The notes below the pieces were generated by a model. The model was not told where the DNA came from. It did no database searches and saw nothing but the letters and a program-made list of their open reading frames with translations. The position numbers and the translations under genes are program-made. This document shows, piece after piece, positions 32,851 through 39,635 of a DNA stretch of 45,587 nt. Source of the stretch: a virus (Duplodnaviria > Heunggongvirae > Uroviricota > Caudoviricetes); the IMG/VR virus record IMGVR_UViG_2597489870_000004; one strand, given 5' to 3'. How positions within the stretch are numbered: the stretch's first letter is position 1; every line of letters begins with the position of its first letter.

Positions 32851-33212
32851 TCACTCTCAATTTTGTAAATCTTCACGCCCAGCCGCCCCCCAGGAACGCG
32901 CTGACCGCGCACAATATTGATTTCATCAAACTGCTCGTCGTCTATGAGAAGTCCGGCATGCGTCAGCGCATCCAGTGGTGCTTTCAGGATATTGTCCAGG
33001 TCACGACGACGTTTATCCGGTGGCTCTGCAATAATCTTTATCGCCAGCCTTCCGGACAGGTTTAATTTCAGCCGCTGCTGGCGAACAATAAGCGCCACAT
33101 CACGGCGATAACGCTCACCGGCTTTTGATACAAAATATGTGCTGCCACGACGTCGCCAGTAAGTGTTCACCGTTGGCGGGTAAGGCAAAACAAATTCTAT
33201 GCGTTCAGTCAT
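32847..33212 (-). CDS. rusA: Holliday junction resolvase RusA
   Basis: 121 aa MTERIEFVLPYPPTVNTYWRRRGSTYFVSKAGERYRRD... with conserved DLDN acidic motif. Confidence 0.8.
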   Translation of the reverse strand: MTERIEFVLPYPPTVNTYWRRRGSTYFVSKAGERYRRDVALIVRQQRLKLNLSGRLAIKIIAEPPDKRRRDLDNILKAPLDALTHAGLLIDDEQFDEINIVRGQRVPGGRLGVKIYKIESE

Positions 33213-34271
33213 TCATGCTTTCCACTTCAGGACACCCGAATTTCTCGCGTGCATTAAAAAACGAATCAGCAACAACAGCTGGCTGCCGTGTTTTTCTTCA
33301 AAATCTTTTACCCCGGCGTGTAGTTCGCTATGGCATTTACGGCACAGCGGAATAACAAACAAATCATCAGCCTTTGTTCCCATCCCTCCCAGTCCATGAC
33401 CAATGATGTGATGCGGATCATCTGCCTGATTACCACACGTCATGCATTTCTGCGTTTTTACCCAGCGCGTGTATACAGGCATCTCTTCCCGTCGTGGTTT
33501 CTGGCGCTGGAGATACTGAGCCGGAGACTCCGGATCAACGGCGATGCTTACTAACGTCTTTTCCTGGAGTGGGGGCTGTTGCTGGTGGACGTGAAGTGGC
33601 AGCGCAATATTTTTTGTGCGCTGCTTCAGTATGCTGGTGGCAGTCTGTTCTCCCGGTACGATGTCACTCTCACGGTATACGGAGCGGATTTTTTCCACCG
33701 GTAATCCCAGTGAACGACACAATACAGACTCCGGAAGCGCATCAGCCACCTGATTGCAGACCGCCCACCAGGATAATTCGGCCAGCGATAACTCCCTCTC
33801 CTGCGTACCGCTGATTGCGTGACGGATGACGTCAATCATCCATGCTGACAAGTTTTGGTGAGCAAGTTGCTCAAGTGATTCTGAGGTCTGGTCACACAAC
33901 TGGTTGTCGCAGTGCCAGCACAACACCATTGCGCCGGTACCATAACGGTGAATGACGGTTTCACTGTGGTGATAATCACCGTGTGGCCACTGGCAGGATT
34001 TAATATGGCGCAACAGCCAGTCAGACAGTGCACCAGCGCCGCCAGCAGCACGAATCACACGCTCATTGCTGAAAAATGGCAGTAATGATTTATCCTCCGC
34101 CAGCGGCTGGCGAACGGCAGGGACGACTCCGGATGGCAGGCCGCACATGCTTTTCGGTTCCGGCTCCACCAGCACTCGAGGATTATGAAATATCTGTATG
34201 GATTCACGGCCCGGCTTAAGGACCACCAGCCCAAGCTCAGGCACCAGAACAGGTCTAAGTAATACCCGCAC
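33213..34271 (-). CDS. DUF968-like prophage protein with C-terminal HNH-type Cys/His zinc motif
   Basis: 352 aa; C-terminus CMTCGNQADDPHHIIGHGLGGMGTKADDLFVIPLCRKCHSELH; position equivalent to ydfU of the Qin prophage. Confidence 0.6.
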   Translation of the reverse strand: MRVLLRPVLVPELGLVVLKPGRESIQIFHNPRVLVEPEPKSMCGLPSGVVPAVRQPLAEDKSLLPFFSNERVIRAAGGAGALSDWLLRHIKSCQWPHGDYHHSETVIHRYGTGAMVLCWHCDNQLCDQTSESLEQLAHQNLSAWMIDVIRHAISGTQERELSLAELSWWAVCNQVADALPESVLCRSLGLPVEKIRSVYRESDIVPGEQTATSILKQRTKNIALPLHVHQQQPPLQEKTLVSIAVDPESPAQYLQRQKPRREEMPVYTRWVKTQKCMTCGNQADDPHHIIGHGLGGMGTKADDLFVIPLCRKCHSELHAGVKDFEEKHGSQLLLLIRFLMHARNSGVLKWKA

Positions 34272-34272
34272 G

Positions 34273-34545
34273 TTACCTCCAGATCCGTTGCTGGAAAGTG
34301 CGGGACGGACGTGGTGGGCGTTCGGAATAAGGCAGCCTGACAGAGATTATCCAGTGCCGATAGTCGAGACTGAGAGCTTTCTTAACCTCGAACCCGCGCC
34401 TGCGGTAAGAATGAATCAGCCATTCGGCCTGTTCTTCAGTACATGGTGGGTGTTGGTACCAGTCGGTTTTAAATGCGTGTGAACGCCGCTCATGCCGGAT
34501 GGCAAGGTCGGTATCAGAATTGTGAAATTTGGTTTTGTGCGCCAT
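34273..34545 (-). CDS. Hypothetical protein (position of rem in Qin-like prophages)
   Basis: 90-aa ORF between hok and the DUF968 gene. Confidence 0.45.
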   Translation of the reverse strand: MAHKTKFHNSDTDLAIRHERRSHAFKTDWYQHPPCTEEQAEWLIHSYRRRGFEVKKALSLDYRHWIISVRLPYSERPPRPSRTFQQRIWR

Positions 34546-34615
34546 CTGTTTTCTCTGCTGGCGCAGCAGGTGTCAGGTGTTCAGGCTGACGTGCGAATTG
34601 TAAACCAGAATGCCA

Positions 34616-34644
34616 GGAAAAAACAAAACCCGCCGAAGCGGGTT
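34616..34644 (-). terminator. Rho-independent terminator at 3' end of hok transcript
   Basis: Hairpin aacccgccgaagcgggtt followed on the minus strand by TTTTGTTTTTT. Confidence 0.65.
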
Positions 34645-34712
34645 AAGTGCGGGTGCGTTGAGGATGCCTGACACATCAGAGGTGGCGAGGGATTTCTCCC
34701 CCGCCAGGTCTC

Positions 34713-34868
34713 TTACTCCTCAGGTTCGTAAGCTGTGAAGACAGCGACCTCCGTCTGGCCGGTTCGGATTCGTACCTCGCAGAGGTCTTTCCTCGTTACC
34801 AGTGCCGTCACTATGACGGTTAAACAGATGACGATCAGGGCGATTAACATCGCCTTTTGCTGCTTCAT
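34713..34868 (-). CDS. hok: Hok/Gef family type I toxin (51 aa)
   Basis: Translation MKQQKAMLIALIVICLTVIVTALVTRKDLCEVRIRTGQTEVAVFTAYEPEE, matching the remembered HokD/RelF sequence; below ORF-track cutoff, found by manual translation. Confidence 0.85.
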   Translation of the reverse strand: MKQQKAMLIALIVICLTVIVTALVTRKDLCEVRIRTGQTEVAVFTAYEPEE

Positions 34869-35126
34869 AGCCTGCTTCTCCTTGACCTTTCGGTCCGTAA
34901 GAGGCTAATCTCTATGTGTCGCATAGATATGGCCTCAGATTAATGTTAAGCGTCTTGCAGGACGCGTAATGTTAACTGGGGCTTTTCTCTATCTGCCTTT
35001 TGGTGTTCATGCCTGAGACAGATAGCCTCAAGCACCCGCAGTCATTCTACTTAACTAAGATTTCCCCGCAAACCGTTTTTGTCCGGCACAGTAAATATCC
35101 AACTAAACCAATGGCGTTCGCTGTAT

Positions 35127-35306
35127 TTACCGCCAGTATTCAATGCACATGACCGCCATGAACACCCCTAAAAAAAGGGCATTTATATATCCAAATATTA
35201 ATATCAAAACATCAACTTTTTCCATATACCTTGCTGTGAAGATGATGGGCATACATGATACGAACAACCAAAACGCAACAAACAAAAACTGCAATGCGTT
35301 TTTCAT
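35127..35306 (-). CDS. Small two-TM membrane protein (59 aa), AT-rich codon usage
   Basis: Start at ATG 35306 preceded by GGAGGA; MKNALQFLFVAFWLFVSCMPIIFTARYMEKVDVLILIFGYINALFLGVFMAVMCIEYWR. Confidence 0.55.
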   Translation of the reverse strand: MKNALQFLFVAFWLFVSCMPIIFTARYMEKVDVLILIFGYINALFLGVFMAVMCIEYWR

Positions 35307-35535
35307 TATTCCTCCTACAATCAATGTGCAATTACATTTAAACACACCTCAATTTGGCCGGACATATAAATATCTAAACCAGAAAAAATCACTTACATAG
35401 CGTTACAAACTCTTTAGTCTAAATATTCATCGTAAAACATTCCCCATACTTATCAGCCCGTTCTGCGCTAGGTAGCTCATTGCCTTATCTGGGAATCTGT
35501 AATCAGGTTTCCGGATGCTGGTGGATTTTCGCGTT

Positions 35536-35793
35536 TTAGTTGTTCATAAAAGTGCACAGCTTTAACCAGTTCTTCTGATGTAACCGGGACTGGCGGGGCA
35601 GTGAATAAGGCCTGAATTTCATAGTTCGGCCTGTCGTTACAATCCTCTTTTTTCGGTACATATTTCCAGTCACCAGACCACTACTTCCCCTGAAAGTCCG
35701 TAACGCCTTTTTTTTCACGTAGCGATATCGCCATGCCACTGTTTTTGCTTGCCCCGCCGTTTCATGCCCTTCCTGATAATTAACCTCGCTCAT
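35536..35793 (-). CDS. Hypothetical basic protein (85 aa), coding status uncertain
   Basis: ATG overlaps the stop of the upstream 58-aa ORF (ATGA); composition is R/K-rich and an alternative overlapping frame looks more protein-like. Confidence 0.3.
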   Translation of the reverse strand: MSEVNYQEGHETAGQAKTVAWRYRYVKKKALRTFRGSSGLVTGNMYRKKRIVTTGRTMKFRPYSLPRQSRLHQKNWLKLCTFMNN

Positions 35794-35966
35794 TCATCGC
35801 CCCACTCATCACAATATGCTTCGACCGGAGTTTTTCCTGCTTCATAATCATCACGCCATGCTTCAGCATCAGCAGCACTGCCACCACGTAACTCTGCATA
35901 GTCCATTAACAGTTCATGCCATTCTTCAAAACTGACGTTGTATTTAGTTGAACCAAAATCAGCCAT
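35790..35966 (-). CDS. Hypothetical small acidic protein (58 aa)
   Basis: MADFGSTKYNVSFEEWHELLMDYAELRGGSAADAEAWRDDYEAGKTPVEAYCDEWGDE; start overlaps stop of the upstream acidic ORF. Confidence 0.5.
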   Translation of the reverse strand: MADFGSTKYNVSFEEWHELLMDYAELRGGSAADAEAWRDDYEAGKTPVEAYCDEWGDE

Positions 35967-36141
35967 TTTGTTCTTCCTCTTCGTCTTTTATTTCGTGATA
36001 TGAGTAATTGCAGTAGTTAAAGAAAATATCTTTTTCTTCGTCATGTATTTCATCAGGCATCGCATCATCATCCACTTCGAATTCATCCTCGAAATCTCCA
36101 CCGGCTATTCCCGTTTCAATAATTATTTTAAACTTTCGCAT
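35959..36141 (-). CDS. Hypothetical highly acidic small protein (60 aa)
   Basis: MRKFKIIIETGIAGGDFEDEFEVDDDAMPDEIHDEEKDIFFNYCNYSYHEIKDEEEEQNG; AT-rich; first of three coupled small ORFs. Confidence 0.5.
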   Translation of the reverse strand: MRKFKIIIETGIAGGDFEDEFEVDDDAMPDEIHDEEKDIFFNYCNYSYHEIKDEEEEQNG

Positions 36142-36234
36142 TTAACTACCGCCCTTTCGGGCGGCCTCCTGATGTTCTGAGGGTGCAGAAATCCCTCCGG
36201 TTAAGGATTAAATTTTTAACAGAGCTAAATTTAA

Positions 36235-36591
36235 TTATTCAGTTCTGGATTTTGTCGCCCTGCGTATCCGCGCTTTCGCGTTACGCTCAATCTGAATTAG
36301 CTTTTCTATATTTTTTCGCCTTTCCCGCTCCTCCTGACGCAAGAGCCTTACATCATCTGCCAGTCTGGTTTCTCTTTTCGCCACAGAGAGCATCCAGTCA
36401 AATGGCTCCACAACTGCACCGCAGATTTTACAGCGGACCTGACGCTCTTTTTCGTCAACCCGGACAGAGGCGTGATGACAATATGGTCTTTCCGATGGCT
36501 CATAAAGAAAATTAACCTGATTACGAGGGTCATCCTCTTTTACCGGAAATAAAACGATATTGCTTAACTCATCCTCTGGTTTTATTTCCAT
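36235..36591 (-). CDS. Hypothetical protein with CxxC/HH zinc-ribbon-like motif
   Basis: 118 codons from ATG 36591 with AGGAGAGGAG Shine-Dalgarno; maximal ORF to 36648. Confidence 0.55.
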   Translation of the reverse strand: MEIKPEDELSNIVLFPVKEDDPRNQVNFLYEPSERPYCHHASVRVDEKERQVRCKICGAVVEPFDWMLSVAKRETRLADDVRLLRQEERERRKNIEKLIQIERNAKARIRRATKSRTE

Positions 36592-36648
36592 GCTCCTCTC
36601 CTTTGATGCGAATGCCAGCGGTAATTGAAGCCTGATAGCTAATTTCAC

Positions 36649-37071
36649 TCACAGTACCGCCTCCTGAAAATTACCCTGATAGAAAGCCAGTACACGCTGC
36701 ATAGCTTCACTCTTCCGGCACTCGCGACAGATTATGTTTAGGCGACTGTCGTAGCGACGTATTTCTCCGTCAGGTAACGACCAGATAAGGTCCGGATCAA
36801 CCACAACCGGTTTCTTCAGCTTTGCCCTCGATAATTTTTTGCGGGCATTTTGCCAGTCTTTACGAGCCTGTTCAGACGGGAATAACCCGTAGCCAGAATT
36901 GTATACATCGCCACTGGCAACCAGCTCTCTGGCCAGAACGCTCATCAGATATCTTGTTGCCCCAGTTTTAGCTTCCAGTTGTCGTAACGTCTCGCGCCCA
37001 CTCTGGCGTACGAGTTCAAGAACCTGTCCTTTAATTTTTTCCCGCTCTTCTTGTGTAAAAACTTTTGCCAC
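36649..37071 (-). CDS. Hypothetical protein (140 aa), GTG start
   Basis: ORF downstream of the replication initiator; GGAGGG before GTG. Confidence 0.5.
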   Translation of the reverse strand: MAKVFTQEEREKIKGQVLELVRQSGRETLRQLEAKTGATRYLMSVLARELVASGDVYNSGYGLFPSEQARKDWQNARKKLSRAKLKKPVVVDPDLIWSLPDGEIRRYDSRLNIICRECRKSEAMQRVLAFYQGNFQEAVL

Positions 37072-37111
37072 AAGCCCTCCTGAAAATTACCTCATGACCA
37101 GAAATTAACAC

Positions 37112-38182
37112 TTACCCCCTGAAGCCCGGCGGAATTTCGTTATCCGGTTCAGAAATATGATTCACACAACGCTGGTTGTTCGTGCCGCTTACCGGGAGCA
37201 GCCAGGGGTTTTCAAAATTCCGGTCCGGTCCAAAAAACGTCGTCGCTCGCTGAACAAATTCCGTTCCCGTTTTCCCGGTAGCCGCAAGGTATCTTGCGTA
37301 ACGCCTCACGCCATCCAGCATGGCCTCTGGTGGCACCCCCTCGCGTAATCTGGCTTTCCAGGCACTGAAAGCGGATTTCTTCGGGTTTGCCCCGGCACGC
37401 AACGGGTATTCCCGCCAGACCTGTTCGAACACATCAGGATAATCCACTCGTCCCACAGGCTGCCCGGTGTTTTCCGGGACTACCCGATCGGCTTCCCGCT
37501 GAATGGCGGAATCGGCTTCAGGCTGCTGAAGTTGGTGTGATTGCTCCTGCCTTGCGGTCATCACCTGCTGCACAGCGCCCGAATCGGCTTTCAGCGCATA
37601 CGCTGAATCGGCTTCCGGTGTCGTGCCTGCGGGCTGGCCAGGAGTGACGGTCTGAACATCCCCTGCCTGGTTCGTGGCGTTTTTTACGCCATGGACCATA
37701 GTGTTTTGATCTTCTTGATCTGTATCTTTATCTGTATCTTTATCTGTCGTGACTCGTCGTGACATGTGCGTGACATTTCGTGACTCGCCGTGACAATCGC
37801 CATTTTGTTCCCGCTTTCTTTCCCTCTCTCGCTGCGCCCTCTTGCGCTCTGCCGGAGATTTTGCGGTTTGCAAAATATTGCCGTTGTCCTCTTTCAGCAC
37901 CTGGCGTTTTTCCCATCCAGTGATTAAATCACCATCAAGTACCCGCCCCTGCATCGTCTGCAAAATTGAATCAATTACCTCTTCTGTCACGTCGAGCGCA
38001 CTTGCCAAATCTTCTGTCGTGACATCAATGTGACCTCGCGTGACATTTCGTGACGCGCTCACCAGGAGGTGGATATACACTGCCATCACTGTTGCAATTG
38101 GCTGCCCTGACACCCTGGCAATTGTTCGCCACTTAGGGTCATTTGGCATGTCATGCCATAATCTGAGCCAGGCGTTAGCCAT
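37112..38182 (-). CDS. Replication initiation protein (O-like, iteron-containing)
   Basis: 356 codons from ATG 38182 (GAGGTG upstream); gene contains two clusters of CGTGAC repeats and an adjacent AT-rich tract, as in lambda O/ori. Confidence 0.6.
   Translation of the reverse strand: MANAWLRLWHDMPNDPKWRTIARVSGQPIATVMAVYIHLLVSASRNVTRGHIDVTTEDLASALDVTEEVIDSILQTMQGRVLDGDLITGWEKRQVLKEDNGNILQTAKSPAERKRAQRERERKREQNGDCHGESRNVTHMSRRVTTDKDTDKDTDQEDQNTMVHGVKNATNQAGDVQTVTPGQPAGTTPEADSAYALKADSGAVQQVMTARQEQSHQLQQPEADSAIQREADRVVPENTGQPVGRVDYPDVFEQVWREYPLRAGANPKKSAFSAWKARLREGVPPEAMLDGVRRYARYLAATGKTGTEFVQRATTFFGPDRNFENPWLLPVSGTNNQRCVNHISEPDNEIPPGFRG
37708..37800. repeat. Putative replication origin: five CGTGAC iterons at helical-turn spacing plus adjacent AT-rich tract
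   Basis: cgtgac at 37748, 37758, 37769, 37779, 37790; AT-rich gatcttcttgatctgtatctttatctgtatctttatctgt at 37708-37746. Confidence 0.55.
37986..38056. repeat. Second cluster of (C/T)GTGAC iterons near the 5' end of the initiator gene
   Basis: cgtgac/tgtgac at 38019, 38030, 38040, 38050 plus inverted gtcacg at 37986; shares the 17-mer gcgtgacatttcgtgac with cluster 1. Confidence 0.5.
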
Positions 38183-38253
38183 ACTCACCTCTTCTGATAC
38201 CGAATCTTTTTACTCACGAGTTGCCGGAAGCGATTCGATATGGCTATTGTCAG

Positions 38254-38679
38254 TCAATGTACTGCCACAGCATTTCCTGCCGGGCCACCACGGTTCATCT
38301 GATTGAAACCGGCGATTGCCACTGCGACAAAATCATCAGCGTCTCTCACCAGTCGCTCCCGCGTCTCCACCAGCTCCCGAAAATAAGCTGAACTGTGGCT
38401 GCGCATTCTGGCCACCAGCAAAGGTGGCATTGCCTTTTCGATCGCTGGTAACAACGCCTGAATTTTTTCAACTGCATCAGGGGTGTCTTTCTCTACCCAG
38501 CGGAAAATTTTCTGGGTATTGCGAGCCAGGGCTTCCGGATGGCTGTCGTCATACAGTTCCGGGAACGTCATTCCCAGCTCGAAATACGCTTTGGTAATTT
38601 TCGCAGCCGGTACTTTTTCGCCGTCCGGATGCGCCCAGGCATTCATCGCCATGCGGATGTGTTCATGCTTGATTTTCAT
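38254..38679 (-). CDS. YdaT-like protein (CII-position early regulator candidate)
   Basis: 141 codons from ATG 38679 with AAGGAGGG Shine-Dalgarno; MKIKHEHIRMAMNAWAHPDGEKVPAAKITKAYFELG...; directly downstream of cro-like gene. Confidence 0.5.
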   Translation of the reverse strand: MKIKHEHIRMAMNAWAHPDGEKVPAAKITKAYFELGMTFPELYDDSHPEALARNTQKIFRWVEKDTPDAVEKIQALLPAIEKAMPPLLVARMRSHSSAYFRELVETRERLVRDADDFVAVAIAGFNQMNRGGPAGNAVAVH

Positions 38680-38905
38680 GAATCCCTCCTTGGTTAGAAG
38701 GCGGATTATGATCAGAACCGGGAATGACAACCGTCGGTATGTGTAACTCATATTTGAGCGCCCCGGCAGTGACTGCCTGAATTAGCAACGCCCATTTCCA
38801 CGGAACCTCTTCCCCCCACATGCTGACTGTGGTTTTTGACGTTCCTAGAGCTGCGGCTGTTTTAACAACTCCGCCAAAATAGCCTAATACTTCTGATTTT
38901 TTCAT
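38663..38905 (-). CDS. Cro-like HTH repressor (YdaS-like)
   Basis: 80 codons from ATG 38905; MKKSEVLGYFGGVVKTAAALGTSKTTVSMWGEEVPWKW... HTH; divergent from cI-like gene. Confidence 0.6.
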   Translation of the reverse strand: MKKSEVLGYFGGVVKTAAALGTSKTTVSMWGEEVPWKWALLIQAVTAGALKYELHIPTVVIPGSDHNPPSNQGGIHENQA

Positions 38906-38932
38906 GAGTCGCTCCATAAAACTGAACGTCAA

Positions 38933-38997
38933 AAGTTTAATAATCAAAACCAAAGAAAGTCAAGAAACAAAACCATCTGTGTTTTAAAATCAAAACA
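38933..38997. promoter_or_regulatory. Right operator/promoter region between cI-like and cro-like genes
   Basis: Palindrome TGTTTTaaaatcAAAACA at 38980-38997 (overlaps cI ATG) and degenerate copy AGTTTAataatcAAAACC at 38933-38950. Confidence 0.5.
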
Positions 38998-39635
38998 TGA
39001 GCAAGCAAACTATATCTGAACGCATAACCCAACGTATGCATGCGCTAAACCTGAAAGGCAAAGACCTTGTCAATGGCACTGGCGCATCAAAAGGCTCCGT
39101 AAGTCAATGGATGAACGGTGGAGGAGCGCCGTCCTCGCGTTACATAAGTTCACTGGCAAAAATATTGAAAGTAAACGAAAATTGGCTTCTTAATGGAGGA
39201 GAGTTAAATACAGGTGATTCGCTTGATCTATCTTTACCGCCGATAAAAACGGTTCCGCTACTATCACTTCAGCAGGCAGCAAGCTGGAGTGATTATATGA
39301 AAAATTCCTCAATAACCTCTTGTGTGCAGCTTGTCGGAGAAATCCCGGTCAATACCTTTGCAGTTGTTCTAGAGAGTGACAGTATGTCAACATCTGGTGG
39401 GGGAGTTTCCATCCCAAATGGTTCAACAGTTTTTGTTGATCCCGATCGAACCGTACAACCAGGAAATATTGTCCTTGCCTTACCCAAAGGGACCACAACA
39501 CCTGTCATTCGTAAACTGGAGATAGAAGGGCCGGATATTCTTTTAGTCCCCACGAATCCTCGCTACCCTTCAATTATGCTGGATGATCTATCTTGCATAT
39601 TGGGCGTATGCTTTAAAATTCAACAAGATATTTAA
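38997..39635 (+). CDS. CI-type prophage repressor (N-terminal HTH, C-terminal S24 LexA-like peptidase)
   Basis: 212 aa; HTH segment (SKGSVSQWMNGGGAPSSRYISSLAKIL) and C-terminal autoproteolysis-type domain. Confidence 0.8.
   Translation: MSKQTISERITQRMHALNLKGKDLVNGTGASKGSVSQWMNGGGAPSSRYISSLAKILKVNENWLLNGGELNTGDSLDLSLPPIKTVPLLSLQQAASWSDYMKNSSITSCVQLVGEIPVNTFAVVLESDSMSTSGGGVSIPNGSTVFVDPDRTVQPGNIVLALPKGTTTPVIRKLEIEGPDILLVPTNPRYPSIMLDDLSCILGVCFKIQQDI

Follow-up and report, generated by a model that had tools for sequence, protein, structure and literature searches.

The principle of an origin that combines iterons with an unwinding element inside an initiator gene is already known from phages lambda and SPP1. 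In lambda, ori-lambda lies within the O gene, and consists of four dyad-symmetric iterons of 19 base pairs (bp) followed by an AT-rich tract, both in the segment coding for the linker between the DNA-binding N-terminal domain of O and its C-terminal recruitment domain; the N-terminal domain and its sites are exchanged as one module in a cI-cro-cII operon context. The origins of iteron plasmids, with initiators such as RepA, pi and RepE, contain helically phased direct repeats of about 19-22 bp beside an unwinding element in non-coding DNA, and their site specificity co-evolves with the initiator. The lactococcal phages TP901-1 and Tuc2009 reportedly also have in-gene origins. In SPP1, oriL is situated inside gene 38, where the repeats bound by G38P stand beside an AT-rich unwinding element; a fragment of 356 bp proved both necessary and sufficient in vitro (PMC5737612). 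Furthermore, a second G38P-binding region of this phage has been proposed to stall forks (PMC6316719; PMC3485210). Here we have analysed a stretch of 45,587 nucleotides (nt) from a virus of the Caudoviricetes (record IMGVR_UViG_2597489870_000004; the whole stretch is called the window below). Positions 37668-38056 of the window are probably the replication origin of a lambdoid-style temperate phage, lying within the gene for its only replication protein, a replisome organizer. This origin/initiator module is common in E. coli prophages and also occurs in phages of Pseudomonas, Aeromonas and many other Proteobacteria; in spite of this, its annotation goes no further than 'hypothetical' or 'replisome organizer'. 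The elements of the locus are the following.

37112-38188, minus strand: replisome-organizer (initiator) gene, 358 amino acids (aa) from the GTG at 38188.
38018-38054, minus strand: array I, four direct GTCAC(G) copies at gene nt 129, 139, 149 and 160 (frames 2, 0, 1 and 0).
37986-37991, plus strand: inverted copy, GTCACG on the plus strand and CGTGAC in gene orientation, gene nt 192-197.
37748-37794, minus strand: array II, five direct GTCACG copies at gene nt 389, 399, 409, 420 and 430 (frames 1, 2, 0, 2 and 0).
37700-37747, no strand assigned: AT-rich tract, 29% G+C (guanine plus cytosine), presumed DNA-unwinding element.
37668-37698, no strand assigned: inverted repeat with 13-nt arms (11 of 13 positions paired) and a 5-nt loop, immediately beyond the AT-rich tract.

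Array II, which is presumed to be the core iteron array, reads on the plus strand as CGTGAC starting at 37748, 37758, 37769, 37779 and 37789, with spacings of 10, 11, 10 and 10 bp, and is located in the linker-coding segment, directly abutting the AT-rich tract. Array I has CGTGAC at 38018, 38039 and 38049 and a copy matching at five of six positions, TGTGAC, at 38028-38033. It stands upstream of array II in gene orientation at an offset of 270 bp (the gap being about 230 bp), encodes the loop SRNVTRGHIDVT within the N-terminal domain, and has no adjoining AT-rich tract in the GC profile of the gene. The 17-mer GCGTGACATTTCGTGAC has two occurrences and no more, at 37768 and 38038, with an offset of exactly 270 bp, and the 11-mer TCTGTCGTGAC is found at 37743 and 38013. 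Both clusters had been recognized in the initial annotation, which reported five CGTGAC repeats at 10-11 bp spacing next to an AT-rich tract containing GATC, and a second cluster of four about 270 bp away that shares an exact 17-mer; both descriptions hold. The inverted copy, which lies 27 bp downstream of array I and codes for D-V-T, was not in that list.

Altogether, ten motif copies fall within about 310 bp. Nine same-strand GTGAC cores are present in 320 nt, compared with 0.30 expected from the rate in the rest of the window; the Poisson probability of at least ten is 1.4e-12, and a hand estimate for at least nine gives about 5e-11. Across the whole window CGTGAC occurs 31 times against 22.75 expected, which is no enrichment, and the signal therefore lies in the clustering. 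The motif has the core GTCAC, which is followed by G at position 6 in 86% of the copies; the flanks are weakly conserved. Across the relatives described below, 126 of 129 intervals between copies measure 10 bp (97 intervals) or 11 bp (29 intervals), a spacing that corresponds to one helical turn.

Selection on these repeats is evident from a codon test on 23 homologous loci of the GTCAC type, which have 61-72% nt identity to the window (one at 90%). Under array I, the codons V47 (GTC), T48 (ACG), G50 (GGT) and V54 (GTC) are each the same in 23 of 23 sequences, H51 (CAC) in 22 of 22 and S44 (TCA) in 22 of 23; the codon V65 of the inverted copy is GTG in 20 of 20, and H131 (CAC), S134 (TCA) and V137 (GTC) are frozen under array II. 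The spacer codon R49 varies freely, and together with other conserved residues outside the motif it uses 3-6 codons. The median normalised synonymous entropy is 0.00 in 14 motif codons versus 0.86 in 55 other conserved codons (Mann-Whitney p=1.3e-8). The repeats are thus DNA-level elements under selection, not protein repeats. The initial annotation had noted a duplicated peptide, SRNVT, which is indeed present twice, at residues 46-50 and 136-140 of the protein, and on this ground it could be argued that the DNA repeats merely reflect a peptide needed in two places by the protein. However, the same hexamer is read in three frames as S-R, V-T or G-H, the period of 10-11 nt is not a multiple of 3, the synonymous positions are fixed, and both peptides are found in low-order, insertion-tolerant segments; the peptide explanation has practically no chance of being correct, and was rejected on the basis of the frames and the codon fixation. 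SRNVT recurs because two adjacent DNA units fall in the same frames, so that the duplicated peptide is a by-product of DNA repeats that run through three frames.

The coding segments that carry the arrays have little predicted order. In the AlphaFold2 model of the protein, the predicted local distance difference test score (pLDDT) is below 50 for residues 47-55, the peptide of array I, and for residues 129-245, the linker including the peptide of array II. Moreover, the array I loop tolerates insertions of 7-22 aa in relatives, exactly at the loop. Both arrays therefore sit where arbitrary peptide sequence is tolerated. Copy number shifts in steps of 21 nt (two units, or seven codons), by which the reading frame is kept: in E. 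albertii, array I is extended to six copies, and array II, with five copies in the window, has three in many relatives and 3-6 over all of them. The codon test also bears on the idea that array I is a passive, functionless copy of array II, generated by duplication or gene conversion within the gene. The exact 17-mer and 11-mer shared by the two arrays of the window at the same 270-bp offset are what such a copy would leave behind. Nevertheless, 23 lineages with synonymous sites saturated elsewhere retain array I at the same codon positions, the codons of this array and those of the inverted copy are frozen, and the core motif is all that the two arrays share in relatives. With the codon test already speaking against it, we regard a passive copy as very improbable.

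The relatives comprise 52 species-level homologous loci obtained by scanning bacterial genome contigs, together with one Pseudomonas phage and one Aeromonas phage; a scan of viral contigs yielded only relatives of about 99% protein identity. Both arrays, together with the AT-rich tract, are retained in about 45 of the 52 loci, which are divergent and proteobacterial. The arrays, in most cases the inverted copy, and the AT-rich tract directly after array II take the same positions in the gene in Shigella, E. albertii, Serratia, Rahnella, Pseudomonas, Bordetella, Aquitalea, Chromobacterium, Acidovorax, Gilvimarinus and others, and both arrays and the tract are found in the Pseudomonas and Aeromonas phages as well. 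The inverted copy is present at the matching position in most GTCAC-type loci. Among close relatives, 80 viral contigs are near-identical to the window, and 76 of them have all ten copies, as does the phage record Tritos; six other phage records share 98.6-99.8% of the 499-bp module, and the module occurs in prophages of 2078 of 5426 complete E. coli genomes (about 38%). The initial annotation had named the absence of the repeats from closely related functional phages as a finding that would refute its proposal; the repeats are present in these relatives, and the proposal is not refuted on this count. Its description of a duplicated iteron block does not stand, as the two-array architecture is old, extends across Gamma- and Betaproteobacteria and carries the same motif at both arrays. 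Judged from this sequence comparison, the two arrays are an ancient, selected architecture and not a recent duplication.

The motif itself falls into three classes, GTCAC(G) in 29 loci, CGAACG(C) in 12 and GTAACG in 5, with both arrays of a locus alike. The switch between classes is concerted: two loci of the GTAAC type (L105 and L107) differ from a close GTCAC-type relative (L109) at every copy, including those where the frame forces an H/N amino-acid change. Motif class tracks the class of the organizer and not the host, given that Pseudomonas has loci with GTCAC and with GAACG, and Enterobacterales have loci with GTCAC and with GTAAC. Within the N-terminal domain, positions 110, 115 and 117 and a 9-aa indel follow motif class, L109 excepted, and may include determinants of specificity; at position 117, the GTCAC class has Q, the GAACG class W and the GTAAC class Y or F, but L109, which is of the GTCAC class, has Y. 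It could be supposed that the repeats are read by another factor, either a host protein or a phage protein such as the CII/YdaT-like regulator, in view of their short core (5-6 bp) and of the fact that binding by the organizer is what we infer. This supposition is improbable, as the motif is kept although the genes around it are wholly different in the window and in the Pseudomonas and Aeromonas phages, motif class follows organizer sequence and not host taxon, and sites resembling DnaA boxes occur at chance frequency.

The N-terminal domain of the organizer is also the one partner that the arrays keep when other replication functions are exchanged. The cassette of N-terminal domain and GTCAC arrays occurs with three different helicase-recruitment modules: the window has a DnaT-like C-terminus and lacks a helicase gene, phage phita81A has a Toprim-DnaB primase-helicase, and phage pAEv1818 has a DnaC/IstB-like loader. 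The N-terminal domain is the sole common neighbour of the arrays across the three. The Stx phage 75/02 has the same C-terminal module as the window with a different N-terminal domain, and is without GTCAC repeats. The unit that stays together is therefore the N-terminal domain with the arrays and the AT-rich tract. In the initiator gene of the Stx phage (L138, positions 2075-2125), a run of GAACAG/GAACAA hexamers coding for QEQEQEQE is seen at the position of the AT-rich tract, before the inverted repeat that it shares with the window, and a DnaC gene follows the initiator; this alternative N-terminal module may represent a different origin design.

The AT-rich tract has 29% G+C compared with 52.6% for the window, and is the GC minimum of the gene. 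It contains GATC at 37708 and 37717. Its building blocks are GATAAA/GATACA units, with three 12-nt tandem units on the plus strand at 37713-37747; its coding strand is purine-rich and encodes DKDTDKDTDQEDQ. In nearly all relatives, a tract of low GC (minimum 0.15-0.45 over 40 nt) comes after the last copy of array II, and it is kept even where the GC of the relative's gene is 58-69%. The organizer gene of the Enterococcus phage phiEf11 has five GTTAC copies followed by a DKD-coding tract of ATCTTTATCT repeats at the same linker position, and the AT-rich tract with array II of the window aligns to it by BLAST with 80% identity over 63 nt (L004, positions 1970-2095; tract ATCTTTATCT(A/G)T). The two differ in the core motif, and no upstream array is evident in phiEf11. 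The DKD-coding tract thus recurs in organizer genes from Firmicutes phages to Proteobacteria phages. GATC is found in the tract of the window and in L003, L089, L090, L097, L098, L103, L107 and L109, mostly loci of Enterobacterales and Aeromonas, at 1-2 per 80 nt, and is mostly missing in Pseudomonas and Betaproteobacteria loci. Set beside the general knowledge of the Dam status of the hosts, this distribution would fit Dam methylation or use of SeqA at the unwinding element in Dam-positive hosts.

Whether the inverted repeat at 37668-37698 is a part of the origin is uncertain. It recalls the palindrome beside the AT-rich tract of ori-lambda. The repeat is also present in the Stx phage 75/02 (L138, about 2035-2070), which shares the C-terminal module and has another N-terminal domain; it belongs to the C-terminal module. 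A one-mismatch scan detected no comparable hairpin in divergent relatives, a weak negative since the same scan misses the window's own hairpin of 11 paired positions in 13. A promoter and terminator scan returned consensus-level matches only, one of the 'terminators' being this inverted repeat on the antisense strand, and Rfam gave no RNA family in 37000-38800.

Database homologues of the organizer have 356 aa and begin with MAN..., which implies that translation starts at the ATG at 38182. The protein comprises an N-terminal DNA-binding domain (about aa 1-128), a disordered linker (about 129-245), and a folded C-terminal domain with a DnaT-like tail; AlphaFold2 predicts helices of modest confidence at residues 6-79 and a confident C-terminal domain at 246-335. 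It matches phrog_3729, 'replication initiation protein', with E=6e-256, and PHROG 'replisome organizer' families at 1e-5; at NCBI it is named 'phage replisome organizer'. Separate PHROGs match the N-terminal and the C-terminal half, which marks the protein as modular. Pfam gave no match at E<=0.01 for the full protein. A profile built from 29 N-terminal domains aligned by hhalign with the phiEf11 organizer, which is annotated with PF09681, at 94.7% probability, and 9 of the 29 relatives matched PF09681 individually (best E=0.0015). From these profile comparisons, the N-terminal domain appears to be a remote relative of the PF09681 replisome organizers of Gram-positive phages, in a proteobacterial subfamily that lies below the Pfam threshold. 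The last 24 residues resemble the DnaT C-terminus, scoring 19.3 bits on NF002770 where the cut-off is 201; the C-terminal domain thus falls short of the DnaT profile, and PF17948 is recorded for homologues with another C-terminus, not for this protein. The organizer is accompanied by the following genes.

38997-39635, plus strand: cI-type repressor.
38663-38953, minus strand: P22-Cro-type gene.
38254-38679, minus strand: YdaT/CII-like gene.
36649-37071, minus strand: DUF977 gene (PHROG 'Ren-like'), directly after the organizer gene.

This is a lambdoid early-right context of the cI-cro-cII type. The DUF977 gene is followed by genes for a Zn-ribbon protein, small open reading frames, a phrog_96 HNH-type protein, RusA, Q and a DNA methyltransferase. 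In the early-right operon (29000-37100), neither a helicase or primase nor a helicase loader was found, and replication must therefore rely on host loading factors, which are possibly reached via the DnaT-like tail.

The initial annotation had called the arrangement a lambda-type origin within O. An origin-like layout inside an initiator gene is indeed present, with iteron-like DNA elements of array II and, directly downstream of them, the AT-rich tract in the linker-coding segment, as in ori-lambda. In addition, the N-terminal domain and its sites are exchanged as one module, as in lambda. These points, together with the inverted repeat and the early operon of the cI-cro-cII type, would favour genuine membership in the lambda O/ori-lambda family. 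However, the Phage_rep_O domain of lambda O is not among the matches at E<=1 for the 29 N-terminal domains, and there is no sequence relationship to lambda. The repeats are head-to-tail units of 10-11 bp with a core of 5-6 bp and not dyad-symmetric 19-bp iterons, the window has an extra array in the region coding for the N-terminal domain, and the next gene is DUF977 and not a loader of the P type. Protein domain, iteron form and P partner all speak against the lambda O family, which was rejected as an assignment and is extremely improbable.

The locus is closer to SPP1 oriL, with which it shares an origin-like region in the organizer's own gene, direct repeats beside an AT-rich element, and a second, separate region of organizer sites, which in the window are presumed ones (PMC5737612, PMC6316719). 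The two differ in that G38P belongs to pfam09524 and not to PF09681 (PMC5737612), that SPP1 encodes its own loader and helicase while the window does not, and that oriR of SPP1 lies about 13 kb away with its own AT-rich region, while array I lies about 230 bp away in the same gene. Compared with plasmid iterons, the repeats of the window, which are likewise repeated sites selected as DNA and in helical register, are shorter and wholly contained in an open reading frame. Taking these systems together, we propose the following mechanism. The N-terminal domain would bind the 5-6 bp core GTCAC(G), and with one core per helical turn (10 or 11 bp), protomers would be arranged head-to-tail on one face of the DNA. 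The five copies of array II would nucleate opening of the adjoining 48-bp AT-rich tract, melting there being suggested by analogy with SPP1. The C-terminal domain with its DnaT-like tail would then recruit the helicase-loading machinery and primosome factors of the host, a step proposed because the operon encodes neither helicase nor loader. Array I, with four direct copies and one inverted copy 230-270 bp upstream, would serve as a conserved auxiliary initiator-binding array, which may raise the local occupancy of the initiator or bridge to array II; alternatively, it may be a barrier or regulatory site comparable to oriR of SPP1.

Several observations weigh against an origin of this kind. 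The PF09681 (Phage_rep_org_N) match of the window's own protein has E=0.01 and 16.3 bits, below the cut-off of 23.3, although it spans positions 1-118 of the 121 in the profile. For the N-terminal domain, the AlphaFold2 model, built from an alignment of 33 sequences, is poor (pLDDT 50-75; mean 56.9), a Foldseek search of this domain against PDB gave nothing at E<2, and a sequence-profile search of PDB was empty. The AT-rich tract is only moderately AT-rich (71% A+T), and 1.3% of the 48-nt windows in the 45.6 kb are equally GC-poor. The concerted switching involves only about three motif classes, and hence few independent events. Array I is absent or decayed in L111, L113, L123 and L120 and in phiEf11, so that it is not indispensable for the family, and the distance between the arrays ranges from 219 to 319 bp across relatives with no common helical phase. 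L120 combines an N-terminal domain of the GAACG type with a GTCAC array II. Finally, no experimental record of binding or origin activity was found for this organizer family in the literature searched.

The recombination in L120 (positions 1501-2000, from a metagenome-assembled genome (MAG) of Noviherbaspirillum) deserves a closer description. Its N-terminal domain is nearest to that of L132, which is of the CGAACG type, its array I is decayed, and its array II consists of three GTCAC copies; it is an apparent natural recombinant. Its residues 110, 115 and 117 (A, R and Q), however, are those of the GTCAC class, a hint that the basic helix at about aa 107-128 travels with array II and may carry the specificity.

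A rigid loop between the arrays was also considered, and was dropped because the inter-array distances show no common phase. The same lack of phasing, the absence of an AT-rich tract beside array I, and its loss in some members that keep array II and the tract would be expected if array I bound the organizer outside origin firing. In this case, it could be an autoregulatory roadblock in the 5' part of the gene, or a fork barrier for unidirectional replication or for a theta-to-sigma switch, as has been proposed for G38P at SPP1 oriR, whose fork-stalling second region offers a precedent. On the other hand, this evidence is equally compatible with a role of array I in enhancing the origin, its distance to array II is only about 230 bp while oriR is kilobases away, and the orientation and spacing of its copies are the same as in array II. 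We consider a regulatory or barrier function of array I possible, though unlikely.

A further possibility for array I, which is speculative and has only a slim chance of being true, is that it is self-referential: the same nucleotides would be initiator sites and would encode a surface loop of the DNA-binding domain that helps to set iteron specificity. Apart from the residues near 110-117, no part of the N-terminal domain is as class-specific as the array I loop. If array I were self-referential, a single mutation would alter site and reader together, and drive the concerted switches among GTCACG, GTAACG and CGAACG. The proposal is weakened by the members without array I (L111, L113 and L123), by the L120 recombinant, and by the low predicted order of the loop.

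The literature that we searched, a limited library in which an earlier description may have been missed, describes neither the conserved second array in the region coding for the N-terminal domain, nor the inverted copy, a 5-6 bp core spaced at one helical turn or the three concertedly switching classes. A paper on the replication units of Stx phages makes no mention of iterons, and nothing on this organizer family was found in the literature on replisome organizers, iterons and DnaT. Knowledge of the origin and its motif classes would offer a handle for predicting replication incompatibility or cross-activation of co-resident prophages, and minimal phage replicons could be built. The three classes are natural specificity variants for the co-evolution of an initiator with its embedded sites. 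Furthermore, the locus is a case of overlapping codes, in which a protein code and a DNA-binding code are written on the same bases, with frozen synonymous sites, three frames and steps of 21 nt.

Two observations on other loci touch on the array layout. In L126 and L134 (about 1790-1900; from a Serratia MAG and from Pantoea), an insertion that bears a GIY-YIG-like signature (YVYYV...GIS.NPWAR) comes after the N-terminal domain, and ACTACG(T) repeats are found in place of the usual array II and AT-rich tract. The other is the ydaU region of the Rac prophage in E. coli K-12, a prophage whose oriJ the initial annotation had suggested for comparison. This region resembles the window in its gene order, i.e. 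racR/ydaS/ydaT, the initiator and ydaW (DUF977), and in its in-gene repeats, which stand beside a stretch of 30-35% GC. In ydaU (L137 3620-4477; NC_000913.3 1421119-1421976), A(A/G)CAGATGTTCAA occurs four times at L137 3972-4063, and two further copies in the form GCTGATGTT(C/G)AA are located about 150-200 bp upstream. The region differs from the window in that its initiator belongs to an unrelated family (DUF1376), its repeats have another motif and spacing, and the DnaC-like ydaV follows. A layout in which further copies stand upstream of a main array may therefore be more widespread.

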